15,309 nucleotides of DNA from a virus. Lineage: Duplodnaviria > Heunggongvirae > Uroviricota > Caudoviricetes. A program made the position numbers. Shown here piece by piece: positions 11,201-14,200 of the stretch. How positions within the stretch are numbered: the stretch's first letter is position 1; the number at the start of each line of letters is the position of its first letter. Location of the stretch: IMG/VR virus record IMGVR_UViG_2540341028_000008. One strand, 5' to 3'.

Positions 11201-14200
11201 ACCACAAATGGCGCAGGATAAATTAAGACTTCATGAAAACCATCCAGCCATTCCAGTCCTAACTCCAGAACGGGTAGGCAAAATAGAAGTGCTATCCGGC
11301 AGCTTCTTAATGAATCCAGTTCAAAGCCCTGTAAAGGAACAAGCCGCTTTTGCTGTAAAAAACGTTCGGCAAGAGTGACTAATTTGCTTTGTTCCTGTTC
11401 CGTCAGACACGTTAAAAGGGGGATCGATAGTGCTTCCTGCCAGGGAAGGGCAGTTTGATGTGCTGATTCTTGTACTTTCCAGGGCCACTTAATCATCGTT
11501 TTGCTCGCAAACTCGTCACTTGAACAAAATTGCACGGACAGGGACTGTTAAAATGCCAAATTTCCTGGCATCATGGCAACCATCTGAACGGAGAGATGCC
11601 GGAGCGGCTGAACGGACCGGTCTCGAAAACCGGAGTGGGGGCAACTCCACCGGGGGTTCAAATCCCCCTCTCTCCGCCAAAATTCAATCACTTATACATC
11701 ATTAAGTCAGTGACAAAAATCACACGTGGAATTACTTGGAATATTTTCAGGTAACGGGACATCAAGTGTCGGTGAAACTTTAACCTTCCTGTCATAGATT
11801 AGCACTTGCCCCTCGGTTTTGTGACCAGAGAAAAGTTGCTTATCCCGACTGCTTCCTTCATAGTCTGAAATTCCTTTCGCCTTCAGATCATGAAAGGTGA
11901 AGTCGGTTAAAATACCTGAAATTTTGCCTGCGCGATTTCTTGCTTCTACCCACATTTCGTTAAAGCCTTTGTACATATATCGGTTGCCGTATTGATTGCT
12001 GATTACATAGGCGGATGTTGGTAACTGTTTTGCTTTTTCGATCGCCGCCTGTAATCGTGGACTCCATGCTTTTATCTGTTTTTTTCCTGTTTTCCCTTGC
12101 TGGATAAAGATCCCGTCGTTTCCAATCTGCTCCCATTTCAGCGATAACACATCGGAAACCCTCGCTGCACACAGATAGGCAATTTCCATTGCGATAAAAA
12201 CAGGAAGAGGTGCAACGCTTAATACTGCCTGGTATTCTTTGTCGGTTACATATCGTTCGCGGTTTTTGGCCTTGAATTTACTTACACCTGCACATGGGTT
12301 AGCCTTCACGTACCCTCGCTCATACCCCCAACTGTAAACGCGGGACTTCATGGTTGGCTTGCGTTTTACTCTGTTCCCCTCTCTTGTCCATGTATCGACG
12401 GATGTGTTCTGGTTTTATGGAATCTGCCGGCACCTTACCGAATACGGCAAGCAACTTTTTTGATGTTGCAGATAATCTTTTTGTGTTCTTGGACTGAGGT
12501 CACTGTAATAGGCGCTGGCGAGGAATTTTTCCCACAAGCGACCGAATGTCATTGCACGATCGCGATTATTTACAGTTTCCTCATACTTTTTCCATAAAGC
12601 AGCTAAACCATCCTTGATGGCGGTTAGTGTTACAGATTCGCTGGATGTTGGTTTCCATACATAACTATATTTATTTGGGTATACATTTGGAGGTAATTTT
12701 TCGTGCTCAGGATTTTTCCTTCGTCTTCCCATCAGATCGCACCAAAATTCGGCTCTACCTCGCGTGGTGGTAAAGTTTTATTGCAGGTAATAGATCCCGG
12801 CTGACAATCGGTTTGCCACTACGATTGGTATAGAACGGAAGCTCGTTTTCCATTAACCATTTTCGCTGGTGGCTTGCATATTTGCAGCCCGTTAATATTA
12901 GCAATTCATCTTCGGTTAAAAATAAGCTGCTCATAGCTATATCTCATAACCGCCGCTAACTATATACGGTTAGCGGCAATTAGGGTTGAACATTAAAAAT
13001 CAGCCTGACTCGGGATCAGTTTTTGCCAGATAGCTGAAACGTATTTTGCCTGGTAACGAGCGTCATCAAGTGCATTATGGCGCTCACCTTCGAATGGAAT
13101 AGCCGTTCTGGCATCGAAGTCTATGGCTTTCCCCAGCTCAACGATTGTGCGTACATCGCGATCGTTGTAGTAACGCCACGGGCAGGGGATCCCCTGCCGT
13201 TCGTATGAACGGCGCAAAATCGTGTTGTCGAAGTTGGCTCCATTTCCCCAGACCTGAACAAAAAATTCACCGGAGTTTTCGTCGATAAATTCCCGCAATT
13301 GTAACAGTGCATCATCTAACGGGATTTCATCGGTCATAATGGCAGATTGCGCTTCGCGTGATTGCTTAAGCCACCATTTAATGGTGTCCCGATCAATGAC
13401 TCCGCCAGCAGTTTCCAGATCGATAGTCTTACTAAATTCGGGTCCCATATCTCCGGTTTGCGGATCGAAAAATATTGCACCTATTGAGATGATCGGGGCA
13501 TCAGGATTTTTTCCCATGGTTTCAAGGTCGATCATTAGATGGTCACACGTCCTGCTGGTGGATGTGATTTCGTGATGACCATTCACCGTAATTAAGGGAT
13601 CTGCCGTCTCGCCAGTTTTACTATCGCTGGCGTGGTCCTGAGCGCTGCCAGCATTCTCCTTGTGTGGATGTTCAGCGCCTTCCATTTCCTCCGGATCATT
13701 TTCCTGAACTTCAACCTGATTCTCTTCATCGAATGTTTTCTGGTATGTTGCGTCGTCCATCACCGCGCCACAATCAGGGTAGTTGCCGCCACCGCTCTGA
13801 CCGCAGGCGGTGCAGACTTTTTCCGGTTCCTGTTGCGCTACTGGTTCGGATTGTTTCGTTTCTGGCTCGTTTTGTAACGCATTTTGAACCGCCCCGGGTT
13901 TCCTGGAGAGTGTTTTATCTGTGAACTCAGGCTGCCAGATCATCGTTTCCGATGGAAGCATAATAAGCTTTTTCTGCTTCTGCCGGAGGGATGTGGCCCA
14001 GCCTTTCCAGCAATCGTCGATTATTATACCAGTCCACCCACGTGAGTGTGGCCAGTTCCACTTCTGCACGGTTTTTCCAGCTCTTACGGTGTATTACCTC
14101 CGCTTTGTAAAGACCATTGATGCTCTCCGCCATCGCGTTGTCATACGAGTCGCCTGTACTTCCTGTTGATGCCAGTAATCCGGCTTCCTTAAGCCGCTGT

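Follow-up and report, generated by a model that had tools for sequence, protein, structure and literature searches.

The tRNA gene serU is recognised as a site at which lambdoid and Stx phages insert; CP-933U/Sp14 has been described as a cryptic prophage of O157 (PMC8065619, PMC2884950). The closest intact counterparts of the integrase considered here are those of the serU prophages of E. coli (WP_136719439.1, 345 aa, and WP_113328452.1, 358 aa), which occupy the same place beside serU and have the same neighbours, namely a DUF4224 gene and an exonuclease gene. In E. coli EC20017429 the same int-xis-exo module is found in an intact 49.8-kb lambdoid prophage at serU. Along with int, the DUF4224 gene and exo, this prophage carries dicB, an immunity and replication region, lysis genes, lambda-like head and tail genes, and type III effector genes. 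A more distant reference is lambda Int (structures 1z1b, 1z1g and 5j0n), which shows the same three-part layout and can be aligned from MGRRR..LPPN through the catalytic domain. In both cases int adjoins the attachment site, and an excisionase-like gene lies before int and overlaps it. Sequence identity to lambda Int is low, however, and lambda attB lies between gal and bio, whereas the target here is a tRNA gene. The two also differ at residue 311, which is Arg in lambda and Lys throughout the family of the present integrase. In Shigella, genome reduction involves cryptic prophages and IS-driven pseudogenisation.

The analysed stretch of DNA (the window, 15,309 nt) is contig AERO01000071.1 in full length, from assembly GCA_000193935.2, given as Shigella flexneri CDC 796-83 (PMC5429569, PMC6397287). 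Its int gene, part of a decayed lambda-like prophage of S. flexneri serotype 6, is broken by two small deletions, and not by a stop-codon mutation. In respect to the intact E. coli serU prophages, the window copy of the integrase carries deletions of 1 bp and 11 bp and is non-functional, and of the prophage only int', xis' and the 3' third of exo are left before the IS elements. The shared frameshifted integrase, the IS629, IS1 and IS600 insertions and the IS-adjacent deletions and inversions show no substantive difference from the Shigella cryptic prophages. The remnant is an ordinary case of Shigella prophage decay, and both int fragments are already present in public annotation. This copy belongs to a known, abundant family and contains nothing novel; its biological weight is small, as one more dead integrase that would lock a prophage remnant into the Shigella chromosome.

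The integrase gene and its two deletions

The integrase pseudogene, of the lambda Int family and called CP-933U type by depositors, spans 11707-12732 on the minus strand and consists of 342 codons with one internal stop, the TAA at codon 106 (12415-12417). Minus-strand translation agrees with the earlier note, which was made from the sequence alone, in placing two ORFs in one frame with this TAA between them: one of 105 aa (12415-12732) and one of 214 aa (11707-12351). The terminal stop codon of int (11707-11709) is close to the 3' end of serU, the gene for tRNA-Ser(CGA) located by ARAGORN on the plus strand at 11590-11679. The adjacency of the two genes, as noted earlier, is correct; the 28 nt then reported are a coordinate difference, and the actual gap is 27 nt.

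The assignment as a lambdoid prophage integrase at serU, also made in the note, is upheld. The central, SAM-like and catalytic domains are all found by Pfam, with the Phage_integrase family (PF00589) matched at E 2.7e-11 on the 214-aa ORF and at E 3.1e-11 on an intact homologue. The lambda Int structure 1z1b is matched at E 1.7e-12, in an alignment that begins at residue 1. In this family the equivalents of lambda R212, K235, H308, H333 and Y342 are present. The residue equivalent to R311 is Lys (in HDLK, codon 11881-11883), and it is Lys in all the intact homologues too, so that it is best described as a family trait and not as a lesion of the window copy. No uninterrupted ORF extends over the arm-binding, core-binding and catalytic domains, with the disruption found in the core-binding domain. 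As judged from its reading frame, the window int is a pseudogene of the lambda Int-type tyrosine recombinases, and not a working member of that family.

The window was aligned with three E. coli homologue loci beside serU. Over the int and xis region, the window shows 97.7% DNA identity to the intact region of EC20017429, with indels counted, and against the intact 345-aa int gene of this strain two indels are seen. The first is the loss of 1 bp in a run of adenines on the coding (minus) strand, A6 in the window vs A7 in the intact genes (plus-strand T-run, 12456-12461). The second is the loss of 11 bp (AAAAGCAGTAT on the coding strand), with its junction at 12346/12347; direct reading of this junction, CATGAA/AAAAGCAGTAT/GTCCCG, gives no evident microhomology. 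Comparison of the frames shows that the stretch between the lesions (12347-12455, about 36 codons of the core-binding domain) is read out of frame. In terms of the 345-aa integrase, codons 92-129 are frameshifted and 4 codons are missing. When both deletions are refilled in silico, a 345-aa ORF is obtained which differs from the intact WP_136719439.1 in 4 residues, while if only the A-run is repaired, the frame is still shifted at the second lesion. The conclusion of the note that int is inactivated is therefore sound, with the core-binding domain frameshifted and 4 codons lost.

Distribution and order of the lesions

More than 100 contigs have both int deletions together, among them the finished chromosomes of S. 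boydii Sb227 (CP000036) and of S. flexneri 6 FDAARGOS_714 (CP055124.1). The latter, of serotype 6 (PMC9455713), is 99.97% identical to the window over 7067-13884. The 105-aa frameshift product occurs in 141 blocks of the collection and on 102 contigs, and its depositor name is 'integrase for prophage CP-933U [Shigella boydii]'. Contigs with the 214-aa product number 127, among them the Sb227 chromosome, in which the int fragment is entered as ABB65640.1 and annotated as 'putative integrase for prophage'. The integrase segment is also present in 1146 of the 5426 complete E. coli genomes, with a close homologue beside serU in about 1100. None of these 1146 genomes reaches 99% identity to the segment, and consequently none of them carries both deletions. 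In the best E. coli match, 201 of the 213 aligned positions agree, and the other 12 are gaps. The int lesions are therefore real and inherited, since they recur across many assemblies, finished chromosomes included, and they are confined to Shigella within the collections searched.

The A6 run is present in all the Shigella loci examined that cover this part of int. Two of these, L022 and L004, have A6 and retain the 11 bp. L022 (GCA_000296305.1) is contiguous, with 99.8% identity to the window over 1-13062. L004 is an S. boydii contig in which int is split by an IS600-type element (ORFs of 100 and 272 aa), with the next 242 nt of int inverted and located 9 kb away; the break shows a 3-bp overlap, such as a target-site duplication would leave. 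No allele with A7 and the 11-bp deletion was seen among the alleles examined. Because A6-only alleles exist, the most economical reading is that the A6 frameshift would have arisen first and the 11-bp deletion later, in a sub-lineage, an order that assumes a single A7 to A6 origin, as homopolymer slippage can recur. The A6-only, the A6 plus 11-bp-deletion and the IS-split alleles would then be ordered markers for sub-lineages of the S. boydii/S. flexneri 6 cluster.

What is observed directly is the lesions, the genomes in which they occur and the arrangement of the attachment site (described below), and the history which we propose from these observations has, as a whole, a probability of roughly 94%. 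A lambdoid prophage would have integrated at the anticodon-loop region of serU, with its own copy replacing the 3' 62 nt of the tRNA gene. In a Shigella ancestor (of S. boydii and S. flexneri serotype 6), one A would have been lost from the A7 run at codons 91-93, and translation would since have stopped at the TAA at 12415-12417, giving a 105-aa N-terminal fragment. Later, in the sub-lineage to which this strain belongs, 11 bp would have been lost 110 nt downstream of the A-run, and the total loss of 12 nt would have put the catalytic-domain part in its original frame again, by coincidence. Without an integrase the remnant would be unable to excise, and separate IS insertions and deletions would then have eroded exo and other parts of the prophage. 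We infer the loss of excision from the destruction of the core-binding domain of the integrase; a related integrase encoded by another prophage might, in principle, work in trans on the remnant.

Two related proposals would give the 214-aa fragment a role. The 11-bp deletion brings the ATG at 12349-12351 into frame, as the start of the 214-aa ORF, and it may be asked whether this deletion was non-neutral and created an expressed and retained catalytic-only fragment in the S. boydii/S. flexneri 6 lineage. Such a fragment might hinder incoming serU-targeting phages or act on the retained attachment site, but we consider the proposal very improbable. Slightly less credible still is domestication proper, i.e. 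that the host expresses the catalytic-domain ORF and has kept it for some function of its own. All 127 contigs have the same ORF, with its catalytic residues preserved, but the genomes are too closely related for this identity to mean selection, and in other sub-lineages int is cut by insertion sequences. Direct reading finds no Shine-Dalgarno-like sequence before the start codon (GCAAGCCAACC ATG), and the ORF is without the arm-binding domain and most of the core-binding domain. In lambda Int, the arm-binding and core-binding domains are needed for recombination.

About as improbable as domestication is that the int indels are sequencing or assembly artefacts of a draft and that the gene is really intact. 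The change from A7 to A6 affects a homopolymer, and the contig does offer one candidate for such an error, in the excisionase-like gene (12732-12934, minus strand; Pfam DUF4224; PHROG excisionase, E 2.4e-21). Here one A of an AAA is missing at about 12789-12790 (a 1-bp deletion that leaves AA), and the ORF encodes 59 aa, not 67. The 59-aa product is found in AERO01000071.1 only; in FDAARGOS_714 the gene is intact and encodes 67 aa, and over 6.8 kb no other gap separates the two sequences. The deletion may thus be either a strain-private mutation or a draft homopolymer error. The base calls of AERO01000071.1 rest on agreement with independent assemblies, and for the two int lesions, unlike that of the excisionase-like gene, such agreement exists in many assemblies and in the finished Sb227 and FDAARGOS_714 chromosomes. 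Moreover, a deletion of 11 bp is atypical for a base-calling error.

The reading frame around the internal stop

The earlier note ascribed the interruption to a single nonsense change in an otherwise intact gene, and one frame over the whole of int with a single internal stop is indeed what such a substitution at 12415-12417 would give. The alignments do not bear this out. In the shifted frame, the TAA is simply the first stop codon encountered, with no substitution involved: its bases are the same in all the intact homologues aligned (GATTCCATAAAACCA), where the codons are TCC ATA AAA CCA and the triplet straddles ATA and AAA. An ancestral sense codon at 12415-12417, which the note presupposed, accordingly does not exist in that frame. 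The 36 codons around the TAA are not integrase sequence, whereas the alternative frame of 12347-12455 encodes the conserved LLAVFGKVPADSIKPEHIRRYMDKRGEQSKTQANHE and reads ...KKLLAVFGKVPADSIKPEHIRRYMDKRGEQSKTQANHE..., which is typical of an integrase core-binding domain. The stretch that is garbled in the window (codons 92-129) is invariant across all the intact homologues inspected, one from Salmonella included. Reverting the TAA would not be enough to restore the gene, with about 36 wrong codons and 4 missing ones remaining in the core-binding domain. With the two deletions directly visible in the alignments, a nonsense substitution has next to no probability.

The two deletions, by contrast with a substitution, explain why int resembles a gene with a single nonsense codon. 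Together they remove 12 nt, and the second put the part downstream of it, the C-terminal part, back into the original frame. Two independent indels have a chance of about 1 in 3 of adding up to a multiple of three, so the shared frame of the two ORFs is unremarkable. One in-frame stop can therefore mask two compensating indels, and a lesion of this kind should be classified only after intact homologues have been aligned. The homologues themselves are single uninterrupted ORFs.

That the A-run acts as a site of programmed ribosomal frameshifting or transcriptional slippage, with full-length integrase still being made, is scarcely tenable: the intact gene has A AAA AAG at the first lesion, like the classical slippery heptamer, but the run in the window is only A6, a shift at this run would fix the frame only as far as the 11-bp deletion, which would call for a second shift, 4 codons would stay missing even after these shifts, and the change of frame is not conserved among the homologues.

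The attachment site and the remainder of the prophage

The exonuclease gene is IS-damaged, as the note had recognised. Homology to the intact exo stops at 13875, and a 3' remnant of about 294 of 823 codons is left (12993-13875, minus strand; Pfam Rv2179c-like 3'-5' exonuclease domain). The truncation is due to an IS3-family element of 1311 bp at 13885-15195, found by sequence comparison on the minus strand, with ORFs of 108 and 296 aa. A second copy, inverted, also of 1311 bp and with 1 nt different, lies on the plus strand inside yeeJ (3111-4421). From the sizes of the ORFs and the terminal TGAACCGCCCC we take this element to be of the IS629 type. The contig ends with an IS1 fragment, the last 114 bp of the window (15196-15309), which is a 100% match to IS1 transposase genes. 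The picture of a decaying, immobilised prophage given in the note fits the shortened exo and the two insertion sequences at the contig end, with the immobility a probable consequence of the int lesions. In other Shigella sub-lineages exo is truncated at different points by different IS elements, as would be expected if the int lesion predates the IS events.

The late-gene block at 1-2459 was considered as a further part of the serU prophage and was set aside, since this module is found at a median of 3 places per genome, and also in an ompW-integrated prophage of E. coli WP7-S17-ESBL-04.

The attachment site was delimited by alignment of the window with both ends of the EC20017429 prophage and with the empty site of IAI1. 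The integrase-proximal block of identity lies at 11618-11695; it starts at the anticodon stem of serU (11618), runs through the tRNA 3' end, and continues for about 16 imperfect nt more. In empty-site genomes, the match to the window ends at 11695. In EC20017429, attL and attR are 49.8 kb apart, and the distal end consists of a partial serU copy just before yodB, which begins CGGTCTCGAAAACCGG; the attR-type partial copy is CGGTCTCGAAAACCGGAGTAGGGGCAACTCTACCGGGGGTTCAAATCCCCCTCTCTCCGCCA. The 3' part of serU is thus duplicated at the other prophage end in EC20017429, and the window holds the integrase-proximal copy only. In agreement with the note, which saw no second serU 3' end, the last 25 nt of serU occur once in the 15,309-nt window with up to 3 mismatches allowed. 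The repeat was, however, expected there to comprise the last 15-25 nt of serU, and it is in fact longer, with the 3' 62 nt and the imperfect nucleotides beyond the gene. No partial serU copy was found in the related Shigella loci with their 10-kb flanks, which end inside the remnant or in IS elements.

The origin of the two parts of serU can be traced by the base pair 48-59 of the variable arm (11637/11648), and folding confirms that these two positions do pair. All of the 19 integrase-adjacent serU copies have G-C here, whereas A-U is found at the IAI1 empty site and in the EC20017429 attR copy. Since the integrase-adjacent copies have G48-C59 and the empty site and the distal copy A48-U59, the window serU is, on this comparison of sequences, evidently a hybrid, with the 5' 28 nt bacterial and the 3' 62 nt supplied by the phage, so the crossover would have occurred at or before the anticodon loop. 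A tRNA 3' part supplied by the phage is the usual arrangement for tRNA-targeting integrases. In a lysogen such a hybrid serU, with its phage 3' 62 nt and the compensatory pair, would mark a past integration even after the prophage has been eroded. ON470580 and ON470583 (about 96% match) were considered as a source of attP and rejected; ON470583, the one inspected, is a predicted prophage region, still carrying the host mtfA and tRNA-Asn.

At the 3' end of int a 13-bp unit, GAAAATATTCCAA, is present in one copy (11736-11748, minus strand), and the number of copies varies, being 1, 2 or 4 in other strains. Over 66 kb, the 11-mer core of this unit is otherwise found at a single place, in the P arm next to attR, which makes the unit a candidate arm-type integrase-binding site.

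The serU gene and the integrase beside it

The copy of serU adjoining the integrase pseudogene (int) carries a compensatory base pair in the variable arm of the tRNA, formed by serU positions 48 and 59 (window positions 11637 and 11648). The pair is G-C in all integrase-adjacent copies, whereas it is A-U in both the empty site (serU without the prophage, strain IAI1) and the distal partial copy of the gene. The working serU of the lysogens is therefore a bacterial-phage hybrid, and the 48-59 pair is a marker of past integration.

In the integrase, the codon AAG at 11881-11883 (minus strand) places Lys (HDLK) where the alignment with lambda Int has the second catalytic Arg, R311 of the HxxR box. 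This Lys was found in every inspected member of the family of the window integrase, intact genes included, and intact genes of the HDLK type are present in more than 1000 E. coli lysogens. Judged from these sequences, the family appears to work with Lys at the R311-equivalent position, in contrast to lambda Int with its Arg.

Repeat unit at the int 3' end and the excisionase-like gene

Within int, close to its 3' terminus, lies a 13-bp unit, GAAAATATTCCAA (11736-11748); the comparison also covered the loci L001, L002, L015 and L016 (1465-1475 in the last). The aligned strains have 1, 2 or 4 tandem copies of it, and the tail variants of deposited integrases are consistent with additional copy numbers. 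As the copy number varies, the C-terminal tail of the integrase is altered (…ENIPSNSKCDFCH, …ENIPRKYSK and longer forms); in one genome the 2-copy form was flagged as 'frameshifted' by PGAP. The 11-mer core of the unit, AATATTCCAAG, has one further copy in the opposite arm of the intact prophage (the relative at serU in E. coli EC20017429), ~110 bp from attR, its distal end, and no other occurrence in 66 kb. The pattern fits candidate arm-type integrase-binding sites, variable in number.

The excisionase-like DUF4224 gene is shortened to 59 aa by a 1-bp deletion (AAA to AA, 12789-12790). The 59-aa product occurs in this contig only, and the finished chromosome of the close relative S. flexneri FDAARGOS_714 has an intact 67-aa gene; the deletion is possibly a homopolymer sequencing error.

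Late genes joined to yeeJ

The left contig end (1-2459, minus strand) is occupied by lambdoid late genes: the start of a major tail gene, tail completion gp17, an HK97-gp10-like gene, head closure, head-tail connector, and the last ~590 nt of a portal gene. At 2459/2460 they are joined directly to the middle part of the adhesin gene yeeJ. This fusion is real, since the junction ORF (2407-3072) recurs in 50 blocks of the collection, among them S. flexneri 6 FDAARGOS_714 and CCH060. In FDAARGOS_714, IS1 comes next after the late genes, and then a DUF496 gene (which we take to be yeeX of the K-12 map) and the exonuclease I gene sbcB, suggesting loss of the 3' part of yeeJ together with an estimated 45 kb or so of K-12-type genes. 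The late genes may derive either from the serU prophage, through inversion, or from a different prophage, through deletion.

Inverted IS3-family copies and the yeeJ repeat

Two inverted copies of a 1311-bp IS3-family element, with 1 nt difference between them, flank the segment yeeJ'-asnT-mtfA-serU-int'-xis'-exo' on both sides. The copy at 3111-4421 is a simple insertion within yeeJ, and that at 13885-15195 interrupts the prophage exonuclease gene; inversion of the enclosed 9.5-kb segment could result. The right-end element adjoins IS1 both in the window (15196-15309) and in FDAARGOS_714, with different IS1 positions and orientations (compared with locus L020, 1-424), reflecting either a true strain difference or an unreliable draft contig end.

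Beside the yeeJ copy, the stretch 4425-7066 is missing in FDAARGOS_714. Within yeeJ, a ~0.8-kb repeat of Ig-like Big_1 repeats (5784-6565 versus 6393-7174) shows 83% identity, and the repeat region is ~0.9 kb longer than in the E. coli EC20017429 allele.
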